DNA of 64,000 nucleotides, taken from the NCBI GenBank assembly GCA_965178125.1, contig OZ237740.1, forward strand, positions 1,116,001 through 1,180,000. Direction: 5' to 3'. How positions within the stretch are numbered: position 1 is the first letter of the stretch; every line of letters starts with the position of its first letter. Positions 1 to 56,004 of this stretch are shown here, in pieces. Position numbers and translations under genes: made by a program. The stretch is from Bilabrum cf. latius. Taxonomy: Eukaryota. Below the pieces are notes generated by a model. The model was given only the letters and a program-made list of their open reading frames with translations. It was not told where the DNA came from and ran no database searches.

Positions 1-1707
1 TGTAAGAAGTACGGCCTCCCGAACGAAGTGTCTGCGACGACGCACTGGACGGGTCTTTCAAGCCGGGGGTAGGCCGGCAACTGCAGCGCGTGGGCTCCCT
101 GGTCCGAGCCCAGGATCCACTTCACGTCAAAGTGCTTGCAGCAGGGTGGCTGGCACGATATCGCGGCATCCATCTCGATCGATGCTGCGCACGAGCCGGG
201 TGCTTATGCCGGCCTCCGGCACCACGTGTTTCAAGGGTGTCCGCTCGCTGGAGGCTGGCACCACGCCTCCTCGAACGACTTTGTCCACTGGCAGGACCAA
301 GGCATGGCCGTGACCGAGTGGCCTGAGCCATGGGGAGAGTCGTCACCCTGCAGCGGGTTTGCCGCCCTGTTTCCCAGCTGGCAGCCGGGGCGGCCCAAGA
401 CATAGATTTGCGCGGGGTACCGTCAGTGCTAGAGCAAGCGTGGTATCGGGCCCAACCCATGGAACGTTCCCCTCGAGGTTCGCTGCACAGAAGGAAGCGA
501 GCCCGGGGGGAACACGTCATGGGGCGCGCCGGAATACCTCTTCGACGTCTTCTTCAACCGTGCACTCCCTTACGACCCGGTGCGGCCTTGGGTGGACGAG
601 GATGGGAGATGGTACACGGCTATCTCCATGGATGGCTGCAACGGGACCGCGCGCGGTGATTGCGCAAGCAAAGGGGGCCGCATGGTACTGTGGTCCGCAA
701 CGGTACCCAGGGGTCCAGCAGCTGACTGGGCACTGGTTGGCACGCTCTTCGAGTCGAACAAGACCGTGCTCACTCCCAAGGGGGAGGGGACCGTCCTGGA
801 CAAGGAGTTCGTGACTTCCAACTATTTCGGTGCCGTGCCCGGGGACCCGCTCGGTGGTCGCACTCGTGTGTTTACGAATAATGTGGGCGGGTTGGGCTGC
901 TGCAGTGGCACAACAGGGTATTTTTTGGGCACGCAGTCTGGCCCGGGCGCCCAGCTGCTGGTGAACGAGTCCTCGCCGCACCACATGGGCATGCTGGACT
1001 GGGCCGCGTTCCTACCTGATCAAGCCGCCATCGCGAAAGGAGCCAAGGGAGCAATGGCCCTGCTTGGCACTGGCACCCGCGGCTTCAGCATGGCCAGGAC
1101 GCTGGGCAGCCCCGACGCCGACCAGGTCCTGCACCCTGGGCGACGAGTCGTCGTGGGGTGGCTTGGCATGACGCCGGCCATGCAAAGTCTGCCCAGGGAC
1201 ATTTCGCTCTCGTCGGAAGGAGAGCTGCTGCAGGCATTCGTGCCTGAGCTCGTGACCCTGAGGAAGCAGGCAGAGCCAGATCCAGGACGTGGTGCGGGAG
1301 GAGCACTGGCGCTGTCCGAAGATGATGTGCTCGGCCAGGGCCTGCAGATGGAGCTGGTTGTGGACGTGCTGCCTGCGACAGCTAATGAGACAATGGGAAT
1401 CGTGGTGCAAGAAGACCCGACCAAGGAAGGAGCCAGCGGTGTCAAGATCCTAGTAGATCCCAAGACTGAGCTCCTTCACGTCCTCGACCGTGCCGGACCC
1501 CTGCCCCCGGCAGGCGGCAGTGGGGCTGCGGGATGGCGCCTGCACGTCTTCGTGGACGGCAGCTCGATCGAAGTCATATGCAACAACCGCACTGCCCTTG
1601 CGGTGCAGGTTCCTGCCCGCGAGGGGTGCATGGAGTGCAACCAGGCGCGGCTGCTCAAGGGCACCAAGGTGGCCAGCGCGGTGGCGTGGCCCCTCGATCC
1701 GATCTGA
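1..1707 (+). CDS. Glycoside hydrolase family 32-like (beta-fructofuranosidase-like), 5' end outside the window
   Basis: Frame 1 is open from base 1 to TGA 1705-1707 except for TAG at 70, 403 and 430. Motifs IHF..GWHDIA, WHHASSNDFVHW, PCSG, YDP, SLPRDISL and LHVFVDGSSIEV match the GH32 propeller plus beta-sandwich. Confidence 0.8.
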
Positions 1708-4844: not shown

Positions 4845-6532
4845 CGTTTCGATACAAACGCTCAAGCTTCGATCGGCTACTCTCTGATTGCTTCTTTTCT
4901 TGGCCTTACACTCAGCAAATACTGGCCACCAGAGGCGAATTGTGGTCAAGATGGATGTGGAAACTTCGGGCGAACGTAATTCCGGTTTGCACGTCATGAG
5001 AACGCTGCCACTCAGCGCGTTCCTGGAGCGGAACTAGCGGCCAGCAAAACGAATCATCGCTAGTGGCAGCAAGATTTCAATCAAGCAACAACGTTAAGCT
5101 CGCATCGATCAGCTCGTTACCCGGAAAAAGTACGTCTCGTTGCCCGGCAGGTCCGGGACCACGAAGCCGCCCGCTCGCTTGCCGGAACCCGCGGGGGGCA
5201 GCTGGTGCGTGGCCCTAAGACCATCCCAGCCGTGCACCTCCACCTTGGTGGTGCACGCCGGCAGCCTGCCCCCGGGAATCTTGAAGGAGGTCAGCGGCCT
5301 CACCGTGGTCCATGCCTCCAGCGCCTGCCACACGATCGTGAACTGGCACGGCTGCGCCGCGTACAGCCTGTCGCCGGGCAGCCCAGCCCTCGCGGTAAGT
5401 TCTCCATCCATCGATGCGTTCCTCGCGCAGACTGGCGCCTGCGGCATGAAGATGTGCGTGTTAGTGCGCCTGGGCTCATTTACCACCCACTGCTGCTGCA
5501 GCACAGGTGCAGCCGGCGGACCCACCGCGCTGCTCCCTTTGATCTTGTTCCCTGGGCTGTCCTCCAGCTCGGCCCCACCCGCCAGCGGCTGCAAATCCAC
5601 TTTGGTGCATCCGGCCTCTGCCAGCAGACGCGCCGCCGTGTCGCCATCGATCCGTCGACCGAGGCTGTCAGCCCACGCCACAGTACCCGCGCCCTCACCC
5701 TCGCCCTCGCCCTCGCCCTCGCCCTCGCCCTCGCCCTCGGCCCTGGCCCCGGCCCCATGGACCGCACCCATCCCATCGGAAAACCCAGAGCCAGTCAATG
5801 GAGACACCGGCACGGGCTTGGTCATGTTCAAGGCCCTCCAGAACACCTCCCCCTTCATGGACGGTCGGTACGGGGCGTCGCTCATGGCCATCCCAAACTC
5901 GGGGTCCTCGTCAACCGTGTGGAAGAGGTTCCAAGGCATGCTCATGCGAACTGCACTCGTGCAGATTGTGTTCCCTGGCGCACCGCTGAGCACCCCCTGC
6001 CCCACCTGGTCGCTGCACGTGCCGGGTGCCTCGTGCACCACGGTCCACTGGTCCACGATGGCCGTCAGGAGGCCGCGGGAGGCGTACTCGCGGGTCACGT
6101 TGCGCACCTTGAATCCAAATTCAGTGGTGAACAGCTGCAGGGGCACGTCTTCCAGCCCGCACCGGGAGCGCATCTGGTCGAAGCGGTACTGCATGCTGTT
6201 GTCTCTCGTGCCGAACAGGGGCTCGTATTGGACGTCGAACTCCGTGTGCATGTCAATCCCGTTGAGCAGCCCTGCCTTCCACATGTCGGCCACGCCGTGG
6301 CAAAGGCCAAGCATGGTGTAGTTGCCCCCTGCCTTGGCGTTCATGAACCCGCCGGGGTTCACCACACACGATGCCTGCGCGCCGATCTCGCCGCAGCCCA
6401 TCCTGACACCCAGCGCGAACCCCTGCAGGCTGTCGTAGTAGAGCTGTGGGCCTGCGGTTGAGTTCGGTCCGAAGTCGCCGTTGTTGTCAGGTTCGTTGAA
6501 TGCGGTGAACAAACGCACCCCGAAGGCAGGAT

Positions 6533-6556
6533 CCGTCTATCCGGAATCTGTCCACA
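6533..6556 (+). repeat. Left terminal inverted repeat
   Basis: ccgtctatccggaatctgtccaca matches the reverse complement of 9257-9280 at 18 of 24 positions. Confidence 0.85.
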
Positions 6557-6600
6557 CCGGGACATCTGTCCACACATTTCTCTCGGCCCTTCCTGCCCCC

Positions 6601-8964
6601 ATGTCGGGGGCAGCGGCAAGTGGAAGCAGCGAATCTGATAGTAAAACTTCACATCTATCAGAATCTCTGTACTAGCGGCTTAAGGACGATGTTCGTGCCG
6701 TCGGTTTTCTGCTTGCAAAAGGGGACGGCAGGGTCCCGGAGGAAAGCGCCCACACACGCTGGCTGCTAACACCTGTGAAGGTGTGGCAGCTTCACCTATA
6801 CCTTGAAAAACATAAAGCAAGGTTCAGGCCGCGGAAGAAGAAGCAAGCATGGTCACAAGCCGCTGCAATGACCGAGGGCGTCGCATCTGGGAACATCGGG
6901 TACAAGACGGTTGCGGCCGCCTAGAAGGCGTGGCGGCGCGAGATGATGCTACAGGAGCAGCCCTAGAAGCGGAAACTGAAGTCGTGTCTACCTGAGCGCC
7001 TTGAATTAGCGCTGGCGGAGCTAGTTCGGAGCAGAGCGAGGGAAAACATGCCGATGACCGATGACCAGGTGTTCCACTTTGCTACCTGTCTCCGTCGAAC
7101 GTACTTGCCCAAGCGCCTGAGGAAGGGCAGGCGCCCCAACAAAGAGTGGGTAAATGACTACATGAAGCGTAGAGAGCTGCATTCGTTGACTCCGGAGGAC
7201 AAATCCATCGATAGGAGCGCAGCGGAGTCCGCCCACGTCCTGATCAACTGGTTCATCGCCTTCGCTTCCATCCTCGGTATGTCGATTGACAAGTCCACCG
7301 GGAAGGCCATTGGTGAGCTGAAGAAGTATCATCCTAGTATGATTGCCAATGCGGATGAGACTGTCGTTTTAGTCGAATCCCCGCCTGGCTAGAACAAGTT
7401 TCGTGACCTCAAGGTGGTCGTCGACTCGAGCGACGACAGGGCCACCCTTCGCCGTTCGCGGTTCGCCAAGACCAACGTGGCCTACATCCCTTTCGTCACT
7501 GTAGACGGATTGGTAGCTGATGTAGTTATCTTTAAGTATGACGGCAAGGGAACGCACGATGAAGGATTTCGCTTGGAGAACGACCGGTTGAAGTAGATGC
7601 TCAAGGACCTGCCGAAGGAGCCCACCGACGAGCAGGTGCAGAAGGTGCTTGACTGCCAGGCCGTGGCACAGTGGGTGGCTTACCCGAGCCCCACGCAGCT
7701 TCTATTCGTGACAGACGTCCCTGAGGAGTTCAAGGAGGTCGTAACGACCAAGCGCACGAGCCTTGTCGCCACTCCCACGGGGTACAGCAACGCCACCACC
7801 TTCGGCGGGGGGGTGCGCCTGCTGGCCGACCACTTCGATACCGTGCGCACAAAGGAGAAACTAGGCAAGGATGCAAGGGGTCTACTGATCGTAGACGGGC
7901 ATACAACCCACCATACGGCAGCACTGAAGGCGCTGTGTGCGTAGAGGAACATCGACCTGGTCTTCCTCCCCCCCAACACCACCCACTTCATGCAGCCCCT
8001 GGACGTCGCATGCATGGCGTCCTTCAAGCGCGTGTTCGCCGCCGACAAGCCGTACTTTGGCGAGTTTATTGCAAGCCGGTACCGTATTGAGGAGTAGAAG
8101 GCCAAGACCATATCGACGAAGGAGCACTTGAAAGCAGCCGGGCTGGCGAAGAACTACGGGGAGGAGTACATCCTGCCGATGCTGATGTCGGCGTCCAGGC
8201 AGGCGTTCACAGCCAAGAACGCAACCAGTGGGTTCAGGAAGTGCGGCTTGCTTCCACTTGACCCGGTCTCGGTGATGAAGGGGCTCAAGATGAAGTATGA
8301 AGTGATCAAGGCGGCGCTAGCTGGGTTGGTGGAGGAGGGGGGGGAGGGGGCTGCCAGTGGGGCGGGTGCTGACGACCTCGAGCCCGGGGGTGCCATCGCT
8401 CTGGTGTGCATCATGTTGGGGATTGACAAGCCCCCTCCTTTGTGGCGAGATGCGCCAGCGCATGCAACGTGCACCCTTGAGTAGGTTACGGATGCTTTGG
8501 TGAAGTATGGGGAGAGGCTGAATGCGGACCAGGCCCGTGACATGCTTGTGGATCGGCGGCCTGGCATGGCCGGTACTGTTGATATGATCGCCTTGCACAT
8601 CGCCAAGGTGAGAGAGAGTGGTGACAGGGCCGAGCTAGCTGAGAAGGGTACTAGGAAGCCTCGGACAAAGACGCAGCTCTCGCGCAGGCTGGCTGGTGTG
8701 GGAGGGACGGCAGAAGAGGCTCGGGCGGCGACGCTTGAGGCTGCTTCGAACAAGCGGAAGAGGGCGGAGGAGGGGGGAGCTGGGGGGAGGAAGAAGCGGC
8801 CCAAGTCGCCCAAGAAGAAACGTAGGGTGGAGAAAGGCAAGAAGGGTCAAGAACGTGCGGGTGGAGGAGGAGAGCGTGCGAAGGCGGAAGCCATGCCCTC
8901 GGCAGCTCCTGGGGGGCGGACGCGATCACGAAAGAATGTGAAGAAGCCAAGCAGATATAATTAA
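6601..8964 (+). CDS. DDE_1/pogo-type transposase, DD35D, 787 aa
   Basis: One frame from ATG 6601 to TAA 8962-8964, with 8 TAGs (6673, 6922, 6964, 7390, 7594, 7942, 8095, 8482). Triad motifs NADET, LLIVDGHTTH and FLPPNTTHFMQPLDV, plus SGFRKCGLLPLDP and a basic NLS-like tail. Confidence 0.92.
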
Positions 8965-9256
8965 GCCTATTTACTTTTCACTAGTGAAATATCAGCCTGT
9001 ACGGTGCCATAGAGACGAAGATATCACCTGTCCAAAAAGTGTGGACACATTGCCGGAGTTGGACAGATTTCTAGGAATCCGCTGTACCCCGAACTCCCGC
9101 CGTCCATAGCTTATGAGCTAATCGTCACCATCGAGATGCAAAAGTATCGCTGGAAAGCGCTTCCGGAGCTCTATCGGCTGAAAAAGGATTCGCCAGCTGC
9201 GGGCGGTTCTGTGAGAAGGTTCGGCGGCTTGTAGTCCCGGTTTGGGGCGGATTTTC

Positions 9257-9280
9257 TGTGGACATTTCCCCGATCAACGG
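9257..9280 (-). repeat. Right terminal inverted repeat
   Basis: Reverse complement reads ccgttgatcggggaaatgtccaca. Confidence 0.85.
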
Positions 9281-10565
9281 ATCCGAGATGCCGCGCTGCT
9301 TGGCCAGCGTTCCACCAGGACCAAGGTGCACGGCAAGATCGTGACCAAGCTTCTACCATTCCGATTGAGTACCGATTCCAAATTTATCGATGAATTTTGA
9401 GTAGAACTCTACGAGGAGCATAAGATTCTTGACCCCATGTTTTTCCCATGCCTCCACATAAAGATCTGCAGAGAAGGGCGAGCAGCAGAAGCAATCAGTT
9501 CAGTATCCCAAGCCATGCAGATGCTTAGTTTCAATTGATTATGCGATACCTTACCGTCCATGGCCGAAACATTGAACTAAGTCCAATCCTTTGGCTTCAA
9601 AAGATACGTCCCAGGGCGGATGTTGACCCTGCCTGCGGTTGACCCTACTTGACTCAAAATTTGAAGTTGCTCTGTGTGGAGCTCCGAAACTGCGCCCTCA
9701 TCAAAATTTCCAGAGCCTGTTGCAAGACCAAGGCGCTCCGCAACTGGCGGCCATCGGGGTGGTTGCGCTTGGCTGCTGCCCACGATTGCAGTCGCGCACA
9801 ACGCAATTGCACAGAGCCTGCTGGATAGCATGCGTGTTATTGTTTGCTATTGCAGATCCAAGCTTCCAGAACTAGTTTGGAATGCAACTCAGGAACGCCG
9901 CCCGATGGCCGATGGATCCTATTGCGACTCCGGGCGGCCATGGATCGCAAAACAACAACCACTGGGCCACTGGCATGCTGCCAACACTACCTGTGACGAC
10001 TGCTGTGAGTGTAAAGCTGTGGCAACCCTCCGGTCTGACATACTGCACCAGCTCTGCCGAGCGCTCGGCTCTTTTGTGACCAAACTGCCGCAGCTCTGCT
10101 GCTGCCGCTTCATCCACCACGCTAGACTAGCGCATCTCCGGTGCGTCTGCCCGAGCCATGCTACCTGCGACTACCACCGGTGCATGGGCCACGACCCGTG
10201 TGACGGCTTGGTCTGTGAGGTCTTCTTTCGGCTGGACCACGCTCCCAGCGATACTGCACTCTACCTGACCGCGCGCTGGCTCGCATGTTGTCGATTCCCG
10301 GCTTGGGAGTCGTCACACGGCGCGCTTGGACCTACCGGTACATACACGTGCTGTTACACCTATGATGTGTCATGTTACAGACCGATCACCACGGCAGAGC
10401 CAGCATAGCCCACACAGCCGTGCAGGACGGTCCTGGCGGGACCTCTAACCTATATGCACGTTACAATCACTTTCTGTATTCGAGCATATCGTCAACTACC
10501 GCCCTTCCGGGCAGGTTGGTGGGTCATTTCGTCCGTTTGCTGACCTTCCTACCTATTTGAGTCTA

Positions 10566-23370: not shown

Positions 23371-25179
23371 ATGTTTCGGCTAAAGTGCCCTGTACAACAG
23401 TATGAGTGGGGAAAATTGGGATCGAGCAGTGCCGTTGCGAGTCTTGCGGTAAGTCTGCCCACATCATGATCACAGCCGCAATCGCCAAGCTTACATGCCG
23501 TGTAGGCAAATCGTACATGCATTTGTTTCAACGCAGTCGGACGGGCAAGGGATCAAGGTTGAAAATGACAGCCCATACGCTGAGTTCTGGTGAGCAGATC
23601 TTTGTTCTAGTGCCGGGCGCCAGCGCCATTGTGTTTTCGCGAAGCGGGAGGCAAGTTACATCGGAGCGATCCAGGACACCGCAGGTTCGGAACGCATCAA
23701 AAGGGACCGGCCCAAGTCGTTAGCGTAGATGGCAAAGAGAAGGAATTATAGGGTGTTTTGGAATCATCCTCCGCCATTGCAGGACTTGTAGTTGAACCCG
23801 GGAAAACCGCGCTTCCGTATCTGTTCAAGGTGCTGAGCGTCGCAAAGGCACTGTCGATTTAGGCTCACCCGGATAAGAAGCTTGCGGAAGAGTTACACGC
23901 TTCTCGCCCTGACGTGTACAAGGACGACAACCACAAGCCGGAGATGGCAATCGCAGTCACACCCTTCGAAGCCATGTGCGGCTTCCGGAGCGTCGCAGAG
24001 ATCGCAGCGTTCCTGAAAGAGGTGCCGGAGCTGGCAACTTTGATAGGAGAAGAAGGCTGCAAGGCTGTGCACGAAGCGGCGTCGTCATCGGAGACCGGCC
24101 CGGGTGCCTGCAGAGCTGCGCTCAAGGCAGCGTTCGGCGCTCTCGTGGCCCGGTCGGACGAGGAAGTGGGGAAGCAGGTCTCAGCCCTGGTCGGGCGGCT
24201 CACTGCTGTGGGCTTCAAGCCGTCCTCACCAGACGATTTGCTCGCAGACGGTGCGGCCCCGGATGCCTCGTGCATGGCACTGCGGCTCAACGAGCAGTTC
24301 CCCTTGGACGTCGGCGTCTTTGCACCCTTCCTCCTCAACCTCCTGAGGTTGCAACCGGGCCAGGGCGTGTTCCTTGCAGCGAACGAGCCGCACGCATACC
24401 TCGCGGGAGACTGCGTGGAGTGCATGGCATGCTCGGACAACGTGGTGCGGGCTGGTCTCACGCCCAAGCTCAAGGACAAGGACACGCTCGTGAGCATGCT
24501 CACCTATGCGGCGGGGAAGCCCCCCGTCTTTTCGGGGGGGCAGGCCGGACCCAACGGCGAGCCCTTGGGGGCCGGTCTGAGGCGGTACGCGCCTCCAGTG
24601 CCCGAGTTCGAGATTTTGCGGGCGGACGTGCGCAGCCCGGCGGCAGTGGCGGCTGTGGAGGGAGCTAAGGTTGGGGCTGCGGGCGGGGCTGGTGCTGGTG
24701 CAGGGGAAGGGGCTGGTGCTGGTGCAGGGGAAGGGGCTGGTGCTGGTGCAGGGGAAGGGGCTGGTGCTGGTGCAGGGGAAGGGGCAGCGACAGGGGGTGC
24801 TGGGGGTGCTGGTGCTGGGTCAGGTGGCTCCTCTATATTTGCTTGCGGTTCGCTGAAGCTGCCGAAGGTTCCCTCTGCGGCAATCGTGCTGGTGATCGAT
24901 GGGAGCGGAATGGCTCGAGCCAGCGCCACTGAGGGCGGTGGGGGTGAAGGGGCCAAGGCAGCTGGGGCAGCCGGAGCGCAAATGCTAGGGAAGTGGGGGC
25001 CCGTGTCTCGAGGTTAGGTGTGGCTGCAATCGGCTGGAACCGAACTGGAGATCAAGTGCGATGAGGTGGAAACAGCTGCTGCGAGTGCAGCCAGTGCGGA
25101 GGGGGGCCCCGTGGCGCACGGTGCAGGGGCCCTCGTGGTGTACCGGGTGCACGTGAATGCTGACAAGTGGGGCAAGTGA
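23371..25179 (+). CDS. MPI: Mannose-6-phosphate isomerase, type I
   Basis: Motifs QQYEWGK, PYAEFWFGTH, LFKVLSVAKALSI[TAG]AHPDK, YKDDNHKPEM, NEPHAY and SDNVVRAGLTPK. Introns 23449-23536 and 23590-23684, 3 TAGs, TGA 25177-25179. Confidence 0.96.
24685..24780 (+). repeat. 24-bp coding tandem repeat x4 (GAGAGAGE) in PMI
   Basis: ggggctggtgctggtgcaggggaa repeated four times exactly. Confidence 0.95.
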
Positions 25180-37569: not shown

Positions 37570-38959
37570 TCAGGACGACATCCCCGATGCCGCCCCGCCT
37601 GTGGCTGCTCCCGATCCAGCGCCCGATCCACCCGCACTTGCCCCGACACTGCGCGGCGCCTCCACCCCGAAGCCGGGCACCACCACGACGCCATCAGTCC
37701 CAGCCAGCTCGCCGGGCCTGCACGAGTCCTGCAACCCGCCCGCGTCTGCCCTCCCGAAGAGCTGTTCCATGCACTTCATGATGGACTCCTTGTTGGAGCA
37801 GTCGGTCGCGAACTGCACCCTGCAACCCTCGCTCTTGGTCGACTCGCACCTACACTCCTTGATCTTGCCGTCCACGCCCCGCACGCTTCGCTTGGCGTCA
37901 CACAGGAACCCCAGGGCCCCCTTGCGTCGGACCTGCGGAAACTCCGGGTCCGGATACTCCTCGCCGTCCCGCTTTTTGCATATCCCGCAGAGCACTTGCA
38001 TGTCCAGCAGGTCCCTCCACCCCGTCCTGCGCTTGTCAAACCCACGGCTGCCATCTGCCATGCACGCCTCGGCCTTCTTGAGCCACATCGACTCGGAGTC
38101 GGGGTCTGCAGCTGCCTTTTTCAGGCACTCGGCGCACAGGGGCCGCGGCTGGAACTCGGCCCCGGGCGTGTTGCAGATGGTGCAGTTGCCTTGGACGCAC
38201 CTGCCGATGGGGCCGGCCGGAGGGGGCCACGCCGCGCGCATCACCAGATGCATGCAGGACGACGCGTTGAACCCGACCTCACGCATCGTGGTCTTGTCTC
38301 CTAGCGCGAGTCCTCGGAAGATGACCTGGATGAGGTGCAGCGCAATGCCGCGCTGCTCGCTCAGCGCCTTCTTGAGCTCGCCTACTGTGTGGTCCTTGTG
38401 CACGCTTACGGTGATTGTATGCCCGATATTCGTCTTGATGCCCCCGCGAATGCGCCCGGGAGCCAGAGTAGCGTCCAATGGTGGTGTACTTGATCCCGGT
38501 GTTGCGTCTATGGGGCTCGCCGCAGTCGAGCCTGCCGGATCACCTGAGGCAGCAGTGGACTGGAACGCCTTGCCTTCGTCTCCTACCCCATCCCAAGCTG
38601 GGATTATTCCGTCAGGCCACAGGGGGGATCTATCACGGGCAATCACTACCATTGTCGATATGTTGCCCAGCCGTAGGCTTCGTATGGTCACACTATCATC
38701 CAATTTGTTTTGGTGGTGGACGAACATCATGTCTACATCTCGGCGGAGAGCCCTCTGCGCATTGCAATGGATTATTAACTCAATGATAATCTTGAAGTAT
38801 GAGCACCCAAGAATGGATTTGAGACGCTGGTATCGATCTTGTAGCAACGTACCGTAATTGCCTTTCTCAGTCCCCCAATCGTCCCATCCTTTAAATAAGT
38901 GAAGGTACCCGAGACCGCGCCACCTATCGGATCTTTCAAGGCGATGCTCTAAGTCCCCA
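37570..38959 (-). CDS. Tandem ubiquitin-like domains plus a Cys-rich parkin RING0-like zinc domain (start uncertain)
   Basis: Ubl1 (TIGGLRKAIT|..KLDDSVTIRSL) spans intron 38755-38852. Ubl2 reads HTVGELKKALSEQRGI..VIFRG.LGD. Then CTIC..RPLCAEC..WRDLL..CGIC..FLC. TGA 37570-37572. The ATG may be split by an intron at 38960-39058. Confidence 0.65.
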
Positions 38960-39700
38960 CTGCGGCACACATGTTGCAGGTGTATTTGTGCTGGCGTTCT
39001 GGCGAAAATACGGAACTGGCCGCTACAGGCTGCGCGGCGTTGCACATTGACCACCCACTGCCCTGATGAAGTGGCAAAGCCAAGTACGGTTAGGGCGTTG
39101 ACGCGCCAAGGCAACCAGCCAATTCAAAAATACCACTCTTCCATATGATTTAGGAACATTACAGCAATGCTCATTCCGACCCAAGTCTCTTGGCAGGGCG
39201 ATTCCGGACCGGCGGCTAGAAGAAGTGGTACTTGCGGAGGCAACTTGTACAGCTCGCCGACGAGCTAGCTCGTGCAACTGCATCCAGAGTAATAGTGCGG
39301 GCTGGATCAAGAGCCGTGATTTATGGTGCAAAGAGCATCGCCACAGCCGAGCTGCAGCTTGAGGTGGCAGTGAGGTGCACTGCAAGCAACTGCAAAGATG
39401 ATAGTCTACACTGTGGTACAATTGGCCGTCATCTAGCCGGTGCGAGCGTTGCCTTCTCATGCATGCTCTATTTACTACATCAGCCGCCACCGCCGCCACA
39501 ACCAACATTAAACAAAGAAGATCGCTTCGCAAGGATCGTCCGGAGCAACTAAACTTGCATCGCCTCACCGCCACCACCCAAACAATGGCTAAGACAATTT
39601 CAAGCTCTTGAACCTTTTTCTTTTGTTGATTCAGTTTAAGACAGGCCGAAAAAACCACGGTAAATCCTCGAGCAACCGCTGCCGAGGTGTCACAAGTCAT

Positions 39701-42616
39701 ATGGCTCAAATGGAAGACGACTCCAGAGACAGCAGCGACTTGAAATGCGACGCGATCGCATTTTGTCTTCAGTGCTTATGTTTAGACGCAACCGAACCCG
39801 AGAGAGCGAGTCTCGTGAACTGTGCATCTCCCGAATGGATTCGTGCGCTTGAGTTTAAAACTGGCTGGCCAAGCTATCTGGATTCGGTGGGGAGTTTCTT
39901 AGCACATGCATCAAGACAGAAGGTTCACGACGAGTAGAGCTGCCTTGGGTTGCACGCGCTTGCTTTAGTCTCCATGCTGCGACTGCAAGCTGTCATTGCT
40001 GATGCGTGCACCCGACTAGACTATGCGGTGCATGCAACGTTTGGATTAGACCAGAACAAATCAGGAACGGATTCAGAAACAGCTCACAGCCTAGACATTA
40101 GTGTAGAGCCCGGCTGGTTGTCGATCGTCGTAGCTGAGTCTAGAACCGGAGACCTCATTCGATCGGCAGCAAGGCAGCTGCTCGCAAGGTCACATGCTAG
40201 TGGCCACCACACCCGATCCAGCACCACTTTCAGGCCAGATATCGCATAGGATGCTGACATGCAGGCAAGCCCTAATTAGCCCACGGGAAGCAGCAGCCTC
40301 GCGGACCGCCGCGCGGCTGGACGGAGCGCCCTCGCTCTTTGGCTCGCGAGCTGCGAGGCGCTCGAGCAGGCAGCCATCGGCTCTAACGGCCACGGAAGTG
40401 CCGCACCGACACAAGGCAGCAAACGTACCCCCAGGCATGCCATGCTCGCCGCCGCCCAGGCCCCCGCATTGGCGAGCAGGGGAGAGTGGGATGCATCCAG
40501 GCCTGCACCTGTCGGCTCCATACGGCGGAGGGTCGGCGCACCGCTGCCACTGCCACTGCCACTGGCGGTGGGCTCTTCCGCGGCAGCTTCGGCAGGTCCT
40601 AGCGGTGCCACCGCATCGTCCGCTTCTTCATCGTCATCATCTTCCTCTGCTGGTGCTGGTGCTGGTGCTGGTGCTGGTGCTGGTGCTGGTGCTGGTGCTG
40701 GTGCTGGTGCTGGTGCTGGTGCTGGTGCTGGTGCTGGTGCTGGTGCTGGTGCTGGTGCTGGTGCTGGTGCTGGTGCTGGTGCTGGTGCTGGTGCCGGTGC
40801 TGGTGCTCATAGGGCAGGTTCCTTTGAGTACACCCAGGCCCTGCCTGCCACAGGTGCGAGCCACGGGTCCCGCGGCACTCCGGACAGAGCACATGCTGCT
40901 GTCGGAGGCACCGCTGGCAAGAAGAGAAGCAGCTCTCCCTCGATGGCTGAGCCTGCTGCAGTCGGGGCTAGCGATTGCGTGGAGGCGGGTTCCGATGCGC
41001 GGGCTCGAGAAGCTGATGATGGGGGTAGGAACGTCGATATAAGTGGGGGTGTCGATGGGGAGGAGGTTGGTGCTTCTGCTGGCGCACTGGACGGTGGGGT
41101 GGTGGAGCTAGCTACTGGTGGGGATATCATCCACCTCGGGCTGGTCGCACCCCTGGACCGGCCTTCGGGATTATCGCCACACGGCACTGCCTCAGCCCCG
41201 GTAGACGAGTAGGGGCCAAGAGCCAACGCGGGCAGACCCATGAGGAGCGGGAGGGGGGGTGGTAGGCCGCGGACTAGCCCCAGGGGGGGTGGTAGGCCGC
41301 GGACTAGCCCCAGGGGGGGTGGTAGGCCGCAGACTAGCCCCAGGGGGGGTGGTAGGCCGCAGACTAGCCCCAGGCTGTCCAAGCGGAGACGGACCGGAAA
41401 TGGAGAGGCCGTGGAGGCACAGAAGGAAAGGGGTGCTCCCGTGAGTTCGGATGCAGGGCACGGTGGTGCACCATCAGCCGGTGCCGTGGTCACGCTTGGG
41501 ATGGTGGACCACCTGGTGACCCACGCGGCTGCCGCAAGGGCGCTGGCGAGAGGGGCTAGCTCCGGTCCAGGGCAGGAAGGGGCCTCCCAGGAGGCGTGGA
41601 GCCAGGTTGCGATGGAGGCGATGTCAATGGGCGCTGGATCGGCGCCTGCAGCTCTTGGAGGGTCAAGCCCAGCCAGCGGACTCGACTCTTCACCCAAGGG
41701 CAAATAGGCAGCCAGCAGCCAGCGCACCGGAGTGAGCGGCTCGCAGCCCGCCCTCGCGCACCTGTCTCCGTCCCTGTCCCCCTCTGGCAGGGGGAGGGAT
41801 AACAGCGACGACGGCAACGATGGTACTGAAGGAGCAAGTCCCAATGGCGCTGGTGGCATCTAGGCTGGTCGCAAGCGTCCCAGGGAACAGCGTTAGCTGG
41901 CCAGCGCTCCGGCCGCTGCTCCTCTCGATGCCTCGTAGCCAGGCGATGATTTTGACTCCGAGTTCTGTGCGGGTCGGCTGGGGCCGGTCCTGAGCGTGGA
42001 GCATGCCGCACTGGTGGCCAAGCACGCTCTGGCGCTGCATGAGAGTGACGAGTGCGGGTCGGACGGAGCAGGCCGCGGGCAGGCAAGCAGCCAGGACGGC
42101 GCCGAAGCCGCTTGGGGGGGGCGTGCACGGGGGAGAAGAAGGCGCAATGGAAGCAGCAGTGGTGGCAGCGAGGACAGCGGCGGTGAGGAGCAGCGCGGAG
42201 AGGCCCAGCGCGGTGTTGGGGCCTCCTCGGAGGGACACGAAGTGGGGGGGCGGTTCCGCTGGCTGGATGAGAACGGCGCCGCGCTTTGCCTCGTGGACGC
42301 CTGGGTGTTCGCGATCGAGGGCACGCTGCTGTCGAGGCATGTGGCTGGGCGACGGGTGGCTGCTGGTCGTTGCAACGGGGGGGCACATGGTGTCGGATTG
42401 TCAGGGCCTGCTGGTGGCAAGGCGGGGGGTCTGTCTCCCGGCGAGCTGGATCGGCTGCGGTCCATGGCGGGGCTGATGCAGGCGCAGGTGCCCTTGCTGT
42501 GGGGGCTCGCGGCGGGGCGACTGGGGGTGGAGGTGGAGAGGAGGATGGCGCTTGGGGGTGGAGATGGGGACGGAATTGGAGATGGGGACAGGGGTGATGG
42601 CAGTGTCGAGAAGTGA
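39701..42616 (+). CDS. Hypothetical low-complexity protein (~971 aa)
   Basis: One frame from ATG 39701 to TGA 42614-42616, broken only by 8 TAGs. No family recognised. Confidence 0.65.
40649..40807 (+). repeat. (GCTGGT)n coding microsatellite, ~26 units (Ala-Gly)
   Basis: 24 perfect units, one gccggt variant, then gctggtgct. Confidence 0.97.
41252..41371 (+). repeat. 30-bp coding tandem repeat x4, RGGGRP(R/Q)TSP
   Basis: agggggggtggtaggccgc(g/a)gactagcccc four times, two copies of each variant. Confidence 0.95.
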
Positions 42617-51497: not shown

Positions 51498-53478
51498 TCA
51501 CTGGTGCTGCATGCTGCGGGCCAAGGCGAGGTCGATGTCAGCCTGCTCCGCGCTCCCAGCCCCCGACGGCGCGACTGCATCTGCCGAGTCCAGCACGTAC
51601 CCACCCGAGGCACCCCCCCCTTCCCCGCGCAAGGCCTTCTTGCCGTGTCTCGACGCCAAGAACCCCCTGCTGGATGCCACCCTCGCCTCGGCCTCCGAGA
51701 CCCGCTCGGCCATATCTGCCGCCGCCACGATCTTCTTCTGAAGCGCGGCCAGCGAGGCGGGGTCGTCGAACGTGGGCATGGGCGCGTCAAAGTTAACGGT
51801 GCCAGTGGCCCGGTCCACCCTCGCGAAGATGCTCCGCTTGGCGCACATGTCGAGGATGACCCGCTCGGCAGCCTGGGGGGACTCCAGGCCCGTCCGCGCG
51901 GCGATATCGGACAGATCCAGCCGGAGGTACGTCCTCGTCAGCTTGCGGATAGACGTGCGCTCCAGCTGGGAAATGGCCAGCTTGACCATCCCCAAGGTCC
52001 CGTCCTCCCGGAACTCGTCCAGGTTGCGCCGCACCACCTCGTCCAGGGGCATGGACCCGTGGCCGCCCCGCCCACCGCGGGGTCCCCCGCCACCACCGGA
52101 CCTGCCGGTTCCCGAGGCGGAATCAGCCCCACTCCCACCCGCACTCGCCCCCGCACCCGCGCCCGCGCCCGCGCCTTTACCGCCCTCCGCGCCCCCCTTG
52201 CCCCCCTCTGCCGACTCGGGGTCCACCAGCGTCGCCTCTCGCGCCTTGCGTGCGATCGCGGTGGCCCCTGCACCCGCCCCGGCCGCAGACCTGTACGCCG
52301 CCGCAAACTGGTAGTACGCCTGGTTGGCCTTCTCGAGGTTGTACGAGACCGGCTTGGACATGAGATCGCTAGGCAGGGTGGGCACGCTGCCCGTCGCGAT
52401 GATGCTGCCCAGCATCCACTTGGCGTGCGCGCCCACGACGAGCTTGGAGAGGCCCCTCCCCGGCAGCTCCATGCACCTCTGGAAGAGCTCCACGGCCTCC
52501 TCCCATCGCTCCAGACCCGCGAGGGCCGTGCCCCCGAAGTAGTGAAACTCGAGGAACTCCAGAGGGGTCAGCCCCGTCCGCTTGGGGTCGATGTCCAGCT
52601 TCGGGTGCTCAGCAAAGGAGGCGGCTAGCTTGAAGTGGGACCGCCCCACGCTCTCCCGGACTGCAGTGCACTGTAGCGGCCACAGGGTGGCAGAGTCGGC
52701 GGGGTGCACCTCGCGGGCGCACCGCAGGATGAGCGGGAACACCTCCCCGCCGCGGTTGCGCTCGCGGAGAGACTTTGCGGCGCACTGGCAGCACGCGTCA
52801 GCTGCGGTAAGATATAAAGAAATTCGGTGGGATGTGCAAGCGCTCGTTGTCGAAGTGTGCAGATAGCGAGCGTCGCCGATCCGGGCGATGATGGGCATCT
52901 GCAACAAAGACTCACTCGCTCCACCCGCCCGCCTCAAATCGCCAACCGGTGCGTCTCGCAGCACACGAAGCAGCAGCTCCAAGATCCACGCTTTATCGCC
53001 CTTGCGCTCCCACCGAGCCACTTCCAGCTTTTCCTTATGCTCTGGCTTCATCTTTGCGGGAGGCTTCAATGCCATCGTTTTCTCGTAGATCGCAGGCCTG
53101 TGATCCAAGTAAACAACTAAACGCGCGAATAGAAATGTGGTTAACTGGGCAGCGAAGGCCGCTCGCGTACCAGGCGCCAAGGGCTCACAAGAAATGCGCC
53201 AGAAGCTCCGCGTGTCTATCTACACGCAAGCGTTCGACCTTGTCGGTCAAATAGAATGGATGATCCGCGATTGCCTTCCTAGTCGATTCGTGTCGAATCA
53301 TTCTGCTAAGTTGCGCAACGTCCTCTGGCTCTGTAACAGAGCAAGCCGCGGCAACGAGCGAATCAATTTGCTCGATGCTCGCCTAAATTCGATCAGTCAC
53401 CTTAACATCGCGGGCTCGAGCAGGCCCATCTACACGAATATCAAGCGTGCGAACTCCTCCCAAAAATGTAGGAAACAT
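51498..53478 (-). CDS. COPS3: COP9 signalosome subunit 3-like PCI protein
   Basis: FLEFHYFGG, FREDGTLGMVK, IRKLTRTYLRLDLSDIA and IFARVD..GTVNF. Intron 53098-53188 and a probable intron 52802-52915. One TAG, TGA stop. Confidence 0.85.
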
Positions 53479-53623: not shown

Positions 53624-55654
53624 TCAAGTCAAATTAATGTGCTGCAGCAGTAGGCGACCGGGAGACGGCCTACCCCGAGCTGCCGCGCGGCCGAAGCCCC
53701 CCGCCGGGCCGGGCCCAACAGCAGGCGGGGTGGCGCCAGCACCAGCACCAGCTCCAGCACCAGCACCAGCACCAGCACCAGCACCAGCACCAGCGGCGGC
53801 CGATACCCCTCTCCACCCCCCTGCCCCAGCAGGAGGGGCACGCTCGGGAGTGGGGACACCGGGGCGTGGCGGTGGCACCCCCACCGGCGGCCTCACGGTC
53901 GCCAGCGCCGCGTCGATCTGTCCCCGCAGGAAGGGCGGCACCAGCCTCGCGCCCCTGTCGATGAGCACACCCGCCACGGCGTGCTCGCCCTGAGCACGAG
54001 CAACGAACAGAGGGGTGCGCTGTGCGTGGTTCGGCCTGTTCAGCAGACCAGGACACGCGTCCCCCAGCTAGGCCCCCAGCTCCACCCACCCCTTCCTCGC
54101 GCACACGTGGAGAGCGTTGTCCCCCGAGGCAGGATCCCGCGCCGCGGCACCTTCTAGCTCGCCGGCCTGCAGCCAGCCTCTGGCCAGCCACCGCCTCGCC
54201 TGCGACTCGCTGACGTCACTGTGCTGCAGAGCCCGCAAGGCCCACCGGCTGGGGTCACCCCCAAGCGCAGGGCCGGGCCGTCCGGTGCTCTCATCCACCA
54301 CTGTCCAGCTCCCCAGCCCGGGCACGTGATCCTCATCCTCGTCCTCGTCCGCAGGCTGCCCCGCGTGTCCATCCCTGGTGGGTGCCACAGTGGACGTTCC
54401 CCGGCTCGGCGCGGGGTCTTCCTCGGCGGGTCCTGCCGCTTCCAAAGCCCCGGTTGCAACCGCCTGCCCACTCGCTGCACTTGTCACGCCATTCTCACCC
54501 GCTGCACACAGTATCCCAGGTCCTGGCGCCCCACTACTGGCGTACGGAGGGGGGGCCTGGGGCACCTCTCCGGTCTCCTCCATGGCCTCCCTTCCGCCTG
54601 CCTCAGCACTGCCGACTGGTGCAGCAGGTGGCGTGCATGCAGCTTCCTCCTCCAGCCCTCTCCTGCTCGCCTCGTCTGCCTGCTGCTGCAGCGCCACCGC
54701 CACGTCCATGGACTCCTGCGGGCTGGGCGATGCAGGCCCGCCGTAGTCCCGTCCACTGGCAGGCACATCTACGAAAGAGCCAGCTGCCATCAAGTCTTCT
54801 CCAGCACTTGGTAAGGCAGTCGGCCGCCCCTCGTCAACTGCACCTCCGAGCTGTCGGCTCTCGGGACCGGCTGTAGGTGAGGCACCCGCGGGTGTGCCTG
54901 CGCCTGCAAACTCGGCGTCGCCTTCAGGAGAGTGCGTGTTATCGGACATGGTCGGAGCACTGGGCACGCCCTGATACCCGGCTGCGTCGCTAATTTCGTC
55001 TTCCGTGAAAGTTGCACCCTCTGCGACGCCACTGGCAGTGTGGTTCGGAGCTGGGAGCAGGTGCTCTTGTCCGAGCACCGCGGCGTGCGTCTAGCTGGTC
55101 GCCCACTCGCTCTCGGTCCCCCTGTGCCAGTACAAATACCCAGAAGACGGATCGTGGGATAGCACCCAGCCGTTTGGTCCATCAAGAATGGCTCCATGTT
55201 CCTGTTGGCCTGCTAAAGCCAGCGTGCCGTGATCGACCTCGCCAATGGCGGCAGAACGGCGCGACCACGCGTGCGAGATTCCCTAGTTCGCTTCGCAAAT
55301 CTTGTGTAAGCAAGCGACCAGCATGCCTGGCAAGCACGTGTTGGACAGAGATGATGGAGAGCACTACCATATAGTCACGAGGTCCTGGGCAGTGCCAATC
55401 TCGTCCTCGTCCCGCAGCGTTGAGGCCCATTCCAAAATTGCTTCTTCGTCGGTAAACTTTGATGGAAGCAAGCTCGCTGCAAGCAAAATCGCCACATGAA
55501 CGGGATCATTAGCTTCTAGACTTGGTAATGCCTCCATTCCTGCTCGGCAACACGTTTCTCGCTGCGATATCGATAATGCCGGGTACTTGCTCAGGTGCTC
55601 GCCACACACGAATAGCTCGGACTGCGTGCTTTGCAACAGACAGTGCCGCAGCAT
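53624..55654 (-). CDS. WW-like plus ankyrin-repeat protein (start uncertain)
   Basis: Frame joined through 4 TAGs. WW-like PNGWVLSHDPSSGYLYW..SEW and ankyrin-like SGDNALHVCARKG and RTPLFVA..LIDRGA. TGA 53624-53626. Confidence 0.68.
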
Positions 55655-56004
55655 CAATTCAACTGCCCGTTGGAGTTGATTTGATACGCTGAGGGCGCGC
55701 AGAAAGGGCGCATTCTCACCAGACGAAGTGCAGAGAGCGGTCCCTCAACTCCAATTATCTTCTTCAAGTTGCCCTAGATACAAGTTCCTGAATGCTAAAC
55801 TCAGTCACTGCGCCATTTCATTACAATTGACTTCACGAATCAAGACGTGACAACAGTATACTGCCGTATGTTTTGGATGTGCGCATCGAGTGGCGTCGTC
55901 GTCACCGCTTGTTCCGGTGGTTCTGGCTTTGCTGCGGCGAGCTGGCCGCTGTGCTAGCACGCAGGGCACTGCCTCCAGTTGCTGCCTCTCGAGCACGGCT
56001 GCAA

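Follow-up and report, generated by a model that had tools for sequence, protein, structure and literature searches.

A pogo-type transposon whose transposase frame carries eight TAG codons in a probable UAG = glutamine host

A transposase frame between inverted repeats

The window considered here, a 64-kb stretch (64,000 nucleotides) of contig OZ237740.1 in which all coordinates below are counted, contains near its left end what is best read as a pogo-type DNA transposon of the Tc1/mariner superfamily, bounded by terminal inverted repeats and carrying a single transposase gene. When TAG is read as glutamine, the transposase open reading frame (ORF; positions 6601-8964, plus strand) runs unbroken for 787 codons to a TAA stop. 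Under the standard code, the same frame falls into nine pieces, being interrupted by TAG at codons 25, 108, 122, 264, 332, 448, 499 and 628 (starting at 6673, 6922, 6964, 7390, 7594, 7942, 8095 and 8482, and together spanning 6673-8484 of the plus strand), and the longest plus-strand pieces under either the standard or the bacterial code are 155, 118, 115 and 114 amino acids. A preliminary description of the locus had proposed that this seemingly dead element in about nine pieces is in fact an intact ORF of 787 amino acids, a claim that the frame analysis bears out, and its count of eight TAGs among 24 glutamine codons proved exact on recount (13 CAG, 3 CAA and 8 TAG).

Neither TGA nor TAA occurs inside the 787-codon frame, as against 29 and 31 such codons in the other two plus-strand frames of the same stretch. 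The frame remains open upstream of the ATG at 6601 as far as position 5095, and this ATG is taken as the true start because a relative, P0006, which is 47% identical over residues 1-190, opens with the identical five residues. The G+C content of the ORF is 0.584, and that of its third codon positions (GC3) is 0.71.

To judge by its sequence, the encoded protein is a pogo-type Tc1/mariner transposase of the DD35D class. A match to the DDE_1 family (PF03184; E = 8.4e-13; score 48.7 bits, cut-off 22) covers residues 410-481 (7828-8043, plus strand), and spans profile positions 64-132 of 177 only. Further upstream, a Tc5/CENP-B-type helix-turn-helix is suggested at residues 133-194 (6997-7182, plus strand) by a match to HTH_Tnp_Tc5 (PF03221) that lies below the Pfam threshold (E = 0.0048; score 17.3 bits, cut-off 22.2; covering profile positions 3-63 of 66); the corresponding region of a structural model is helical, with a predicted local distance difference test score (pLDDT) of about 90. 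The three putative catalytic aspartates, all encoded on the plus strand, are D252 (7354-7356), assigned by its motif and aligned with the N-DET residues conserved in the pogo consensus, D432 (7894-7896), assigned by motif and consensus, and D468 (8002-8004), assigned by its motif and placed 35 residues after D432, in agreement with the DD35D arrangement given in the preliminary description. The motifs around all three match the consensus of 60 aligned relatives, and Q465 beside D468, which is encoded by CAG, is nearly invariant over 60 sequences.

The AlphaFold model, made with 60 aligned relatives, has a mean pLDDT of 74.4, and residues 50-580 mostly score higher than 80. Disorder is modelled for the first 20 residues and for the C-terminal tail, and about 200 residues at the C-terminal end form a long basic extension without known domain. 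When the model was compared with known structures by Foldseek, the top match was the full-length Mos1 mariner transposase (E = 3.4e-6, probability 1.00), followed by the catalytic domains of Sleeping Beauty (E = 9.1e-3) and Metnase (E = 2.4e-2).

The limits of the element, 6525-9085, are set by the alignment of its inverted repeats and are uncertain by about 5 nucleotides. The left repeat (6529-6579, plus strand) was delimited by gapped local alignment against 9080-9035, and the right repeat (9035-9080, minus strand) by a repeat search together with the same alignment. The repeats are 46-51 nucleotides long and imperfect, with a 35-nucleotide core at 77% complementarity. At the borders, an 8-nucleotide direct repeat (left copy 6517-6524, right copy 9086-9093) is the longest direct match between the 40-nucleotide flanks, but is of weak significance and no more than suggestive of a target-site duplication; a direct match of this length was reached in 64 of 5000 shuffles and in 17 of 633 genomic control pairs. 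A TA dinucleotide lies directly outside the right end (9085-9086), and none is present at the left end, as judged from one copy with the uncertainty in its ends noted above.

The explanation that we prefer, with a probability of about 0.75, is that the locus holds a structurally intact pogo-type (Tc1/mariner, DD35D) DNA transposon of about 2.56 kb in a host that reads UAG as glutamine. The eight TAGs would then be ordinary glutamine codons for the host, and the single gene of 787 codons would yield a protein with a putative helix-turn-helix DNA-binding region at its N terminus, followed by an RNase-H-like DDD core and a basic C-terminal tail. By analogy with its family, such an enzyme would bind the terminal inverted repeats and then cut and paste the element. 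The translation, the mobility and the length of residence of the element are what we infer rather than what was observed. Of the eight TAGs, six lie upstream of the codon for D468, the third catalytic aspartate, and therefore a ribosome that terminates at UAG would not be expected to make active enzyme. By the logic of the code, a full-length transposase is possible only where UAG is decoded, and its synthesis would fail in standard-code hosts.

Glutamine codons of the host and of the element

The preferred explanation depends on how the host reads TAG. In the 15 long host ORFs of the window there are 73 TAG, 500 CAG and 102 CAA codons, such that TAG makes up 73 of 675 glutamine-type codons (0.108), and at least one in-frame TAG is present in 14 of the 15. 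These host frames were begun at the first ATG, GTG or TTG past a stop, and some TAGs near their 5' ends possibly lie outside the true genes. Twelve of the frames end in TGA and two in TAA, with one running off the window; the transposase, as noted, ends in TAA. The G+C content of the window varies from 0.52 to 0.72 per 2 kb, and it is filled, on either strand, with long frames that stay open only when TAG is taken as sense.

The identity of the amino acid is indicated by alignments. In the case of phosphomannose isomerase (PMI), the TAG at codon 91 aligns with a conserved glutamine that the PMI structures of Candida and Salmonella share. Within the transposase family, the TAG at codon 264 aligns with glutamine in three of five relatives (P0007, which is 84% identical, P0010 and P0012), and provides independent within-family support for UAG = glutamine in the host. 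The TAG of the RIO1 gene falls at a variable alignment position, occupied by H or G, and is uninformative on the code. A tRNA scan of the 64-kb window found no tRNA genes. On the evidence of these sequences, the nuclear code of the host appears to be one in which UAG is glutamine and UAA and UGA remain stops. A limited literature search found no paper on UAG = glutamine in a stramenopile-like organism, and the host code itself may merit a separate report.

That the host is such an organism is suggested by its gene content and best matches, which point to a stramenopile-like organism and not to a ciliate. The host is G+C-rich, and its genes are long and mostly intron-free. Pfam names could be given to window frames for a RIO1 kinase, Mon2/DCB, Asparaginase_2, phosphomannose isomerase, a PPR protein of 2854 amino acids and DHX15/Prp43, and further for a COQ6-like monooxygenase, CSN3, a thioredoxin-GAF protein and a WW protein. 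The host DHX15 lacks a near relative among named sequences, its best named matches being from Cafeteria (69%) and a bicosoecid (71%).

The use of TAG is uneven among host genes. The DHX15 frame of 808 codons contains 1 TAG, 35 CAG and 2 CAA codons at a GC3 of 0.81, its protein of 743 amino acids beginning at codon 66, and the single TAG that the preliminary description had reported for this protein was found by count. Over the host ORFs, TAG accounts for 0 to 31% of glutamine codons, and this share falls as GC3 rises (Spearman -0.81, P = 0.0003). Shares of 0-7% are found for DHX15, PPR, CSN3 and a glycosidase-like ORF, and shares of 22-31% for Asparaginase_2, PMI (4 of 13) and the ORF at 39608-42613. 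Such a gradient may reflect selection against TAG or mutation bias. At 33%, the TAG share of the transposase exceeds the pooled host value of 10.8% (binomial P = 0.0028), lies somewhat above the host trend of TAG share with GC3, and equals or exceeds that of host genes of low GC3.

In its codon usage the transposase resembles the host. The correlation of relative synonymous codon usage between the transposase and the pooled host ORFs is 0.83, within the range of 0.72-0.98 for the host ORFs, as compared with 0.38 and 0.08 for its own wrong frames. Long residence in a UAG = glutamine lineage, as proposed in the preliminary description, is plausible on such grounds. The part of that proposal concerning the code stood, given the in-frame TAGs of 14 of 15 host ORFs and codon 91 of PMI; for residence itself the backing is indirect, and consists of the host-like codon usage, of the TAG share, which equals or exceeds that of low-GC3 host genes, and of the finding that the closest database relatives are all fragments. 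Host-like codon usage and TAG share fit either long residence or a donor of the same code and composition, and therefore cannot separate the two.

Copies, relatives and alternative explanations

The sequence of the element recurs outside the window. Eight public sequencing runs from four studies, none of them listed as RNA, contain half or more of the words sampled from the stretch, and four of these runs (X1, X5, X6 and X7) were compared with the window in contig detail, with the repeat at 5681-5759 skipped. In X1, the likely source, one contig of 18,107 nucleotides extends unbranched from 6608 to past 10000, through the ORF and the right end. A separate X1 contig of 109 nucleotides corresponds to 6529-6637 (plus strand), that is, to the left inverted repeat together with the leader and 37 nucleotides at the start of the ORF. 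Contigs of 845, 35884 and 24321 nucleotides meet it at 6529 with different left continuations, and another continuation follows after 6637. With three different left flanks at 6529, the left end of the element must therefore exist at two or more further loci. No second copy was found when the element was compared with the 64-kb window by tblastn and blastn.

The remaining runs bear on the accuracy of the sequence. A contig path in X5 bridges 6529-9286 at the same locus, with identical flanks and 4 other letters in 2758 nucleotides, which amount to the replacements F158L, W358R and Y566D and one silent change; at a depth of 2.94, some of these are possibly errors, and X7 repeats just one of the four, that at 7074. 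X6 covers 6592-8295 and 8431-8966 with no other letters (gap 8296-8430), and X7 covers 6860-8312 and 8373-8755 with one other letter (gap 8313-8372); the contigs of both runs represent parts of the ORF, without the left flank or the inverted repeats. X6 and X7 are at best possible RNA runs, X6 being marked as probable DNA, and neither uncovered parts nor depth figures are given weight here on transcription or copy number. Contigs from the three other studies match the ORF at 99.85-100% identity. All eight TAGs are covered in X5 and in X6 and seven of the eight in X7, and none is altered in any run; being unchanged in contigs of three further studies, they are therefore not assembly errors.

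A further X1 contig of 2776 nucleotides, whose depth is much higher, matches 7980-8027 at 45 of 48 nucleotides (three other letters), and like contigs are found in X5 and X6. This resemblance points to a related and more abundant transposon family that would reside in the same organism, a family that the amino-acid differences of P0005 in the catalytic motif would also fit.

A word-based protein search returned only three weak full-length pogo matches (E about 1e-3). Closer relatives came from a 'shorter' search and an all-against-all HMMER search, and all ten of these are fragments of 93-479 amino acids: P0005 (371 amino acids, 54% identical), P0009, P0006, P0007 (103 amino acids, 84%), P0010, P0011, P0012, P0014, P0015 and P0016. 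The statement in the preliminary description that standard pipelines would misannotate the element agrees with these results, as the standard code splits the ORF and the ten closest database relatives out of ten are fragments. Three of about 17 internal ends of the relatives' fragments coincide with glutamine positions of the window protein: P0005 starts after Q366, P0012 ends before Q353, and P0015 ends before the TAG-coded Q628. Such ends hint that standard-code gene calling may have cut the relatives at TAG too. In single-protein scans of JGI metagenome contigs, 176 pattern-matched stretches were returned for P0001 and 492 for P0005, none of which was confirmed by tblastn.

Several observations weigh against the intact transposon that we prefer, or weaken parts of the preliminary description. 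That all eight nonsense codons are TAG is, taken alone, poor evidence against decay, because 66% of one-step nonsense mutation paths in the ORF lead to TAG; the probability of eight TAGs out of eight under pure decay is 0.037. At seven of the eight TAG sites the distant relatives have no glutamine, or at most one (a doubtful Q at 628), and glutamine occupies 4 of 30 aligned cells of the relatives at TAG-coded sites versus 18 of 48 at sites coded by CAG or CAA, a difference suggesting that TAG tends toward variable positions. The contrast with DHX15 drawn in the preliminary description held in its counts and not in its specificity, since the host range of 0-31% tracks GC3; the contrast largely follows this host-wide gradient and is not specific to the transposon. 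A sole full-length copy was assembled in X1, so that copies are not comparable with one another, and the three replacements and one silent change of X5 give no sign of purifying selection, four sites being powerless for this purpose. The inverted repeats are merely about 77% complementary, and the TA duplication that defines Tc1/mariner/pogo elements was not seen at the left end of this single copy.

Among the alternatives, a recent arrival is the one that survives best, and we consider it unlikely. The element would in this case have come from another UAG = glutamine organism, or would have gained its TAGs fast, which would accord with a TAG share (8 of 24) above the host trend for its GC3, with a G+C content lower than that of any other of the 16 ORFs compared (host range 0.608-0.686), and with the non-glutamine residues that most relatives have at seven of the eight TAG sites. 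However, the codon usage of the transposase is within the host range, the abundant related family in the same runs matches it at 45 of 48 nucleotides of the catalytic motif, and the fragment ends that abut glutamine hint at TAG cuts in the relatives as well. Donors would also be scarce, as the lineages known to read only UAG as glutamine are very few (PMC5304391).

Domestication, in which a single-copy pogo-derived gene would have taken on a cellular role in the host and become immobile, is quite improbable. It would explain why one full-length copy was assembled in X1, why the ORF is so nearly identical in three other studies and lies at the same locus in X5, why the inverted repeats are imperfect and the TA duplication is not seen, and why the protein has a long basic C-terminal extension. 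The near-identity between runs, however, may just reflect the same species or strain, as the flanks are identical too, and inverted repeats of 46-51 nucleotides are still recognisable. The catalytic triad is intact, an identical left end is present at two or more other loci, and the element apparently sits between the halves of a minus-strand host gene, a position unexpected for a recruited gene.

A dead copy, in which the long frame would be accidental and each TAG a genuine nonsense mutation, is highly improbable: the nine pieces under the standard code, the lack of glutamine at most TAG sites in relatives and the standing of TAG as the commonest one-step nonsense outcome in the ORF would suit it, but decay is set aside because 14 of the 15 long host ORFs use TAG in frame, including at the conserved PMI glutamine, because no TGA, TAA or frameshift interrupts 787 codons as against about 30 such stops in each of the other frames, because the domains, the catalytic triad and the predicted fold appear intact, and because codon usage correlates at 0.83 in frame versus 0.38 and 0.08 out of frame.

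The preferred explanation, an intact pogo-type transposon in a UAG = glutamine host, can be extended to a wider one, which we offer as tentative and regard as doubtful. Here, a whole pogo-like lineage would have diversified in a clade of protists that read only UAG as glutamine, and would include this element, the abundant sister family and the fragment relatives. TAGs would be shared at glutamine positions, the code would act as a one-way barrier that keeps the family within the clade, and a duplication of possibly about 8 bp would take the place of TA. If the family is confined to such hosts, it would represent a natural test of whether code changes wall off mobile DNA. A limited literature search found no paper treating in-frame reassigned stops in transposases as a transfer barrier. 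The use of the host's variant code by a transposon is expected, and since both the idea of such walling off and variant-code transposons have ciliate precedents, the gain is incremental. The locus nevertheless provides a clean example of how standard-code annotation mislabels a mobile element as nine fragments, with close relatives in large protein collections likewise all present as fragments.

Neighbouring genes and known systems

The element seems to sit between the halves of one minus-strand gene (5112-6524 and 9094-9861, both minus strand). The N-terminal part of this gene begins near 9831 with what resembles a signal peptide and contains a GT..AG intron (9554-9466). In the C-terminal part there is an NEP-type motif, together with features like those of GH39/GH5 (atlas score 0.94), which serve as a lead only. 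Pfam and PDB sequence searches with the flanking gene gave no matches. When the element is removed in silico, the frame is open over the junction but requires one further intron, and with at least 30 GT..AG choices that restore the frame, such a reconstruction of an uninterrupted host gene is no proof. At the left edge of the window, an ORF cut by the window start (1-1704, plus strand) has below-threshold matches to the N- and C-terminal parts of glycoside hydrolase family 32 (E = 0.0057 and 0.00062), and would be a second secreted-glycosidase-like gene near the one that flanks the element.

Elsewhere in the window, the other stretches of low G+C yielded no further transposase, just a 514-amino-acid ORF at 37573-39114 (minus strand). 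This ORF lies in a stretch with a G+C content of 0.55, contains no TAG and encodes a domain of the ubiquitin family (E = 3.2e-11); on the other strand it is overlapped by an ORF of equal length. Many host ORFs contain long Gly-Glu or Gly-Ala dipeptide runs that arise from simple G+C-rich microsatellites, located at 5681-5759 and within 23590-25176, 39608-42613, 51501-53225 and 53627-55657.

With respect to its code, the closest known case is that of Iotanema spirale, for which UAG = glutamine with UAA retained as a stop is described in PMC5304391, which counts very few lineages as reading only UAG as glutamine. The window genes share this pattern, TAG being sense and aligned with glutamine and TAA and TGA terminating. 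In contrast to Iotanema spirale, the present host has PPR proteins, a COQ6-like monooxygenase and a DHX15 that is nearest to stramenopiles (about 70%), and is therefore not that anaerobic metamonad.

With respect to the element, the likeness is greatest to the pogo, Tigger and Fot1 group, which PMC7325037 places within IS630-Tc1-mariner with a DDxD triad, several pogo groups being DD35D. The window element shares with this group DDE_1, a DDD triad spaced by 35, conserved motifs near the three aspartates, terminal inverted repeats and a single intron-less ORF, and may share an upstream helix-turn-helix of Tc5/CENP-B type, the match to which is below threshold. It differs in that its protein is only about 20-35% identical to named or full-length pogo proteins, has a gap of 179 residues between the first and second aspartates and a C-terminal extension of about 200 residues, and is encoded with eight TAG glutamine codons. 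It also differs in that no TA duplication is seen on the left flank, the TA target-site duplication being a feature of the Tc1/mariner superfamily (PMC7325037).

Mos1, which PMC7325037 lists as DD34D, provides the best match for the model in both its DNA-binding and catalytic parts (PDB 4u7b, 3hot, 3hos and 5hoo; E = 3.4e-6 to 8e-4). The identity, however, is 9-11%, the TM-score on the target is 0.35-0.38, and the window protein exceeds Mos1 more than twofold in length.

In Oxytricha, UAA and UAG encode glutamine, and the ORFs of its Tc1-family TBE elements and of other ciliate transposons are read in the ciliate code. As compared with TBE elements, the present element resides in a host that is not a ciliate and in which only UAG is reassigned, is represented by one assembled full-length copy as opposed to thousands of TBE copies, and is without a link to programmed DNA elimination. 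PMC4724952 describes TBE genes as being under purifying selection, and PMC9942806 describes ciliate autonomous elements of Tc1/mariner type in hosts with reassigned stops. It is this combination, an apparently autonomous Tc1/mariner-type element in a variant-code host, that the window element would share with the Oxytricha TBE and other ciliate transposons.

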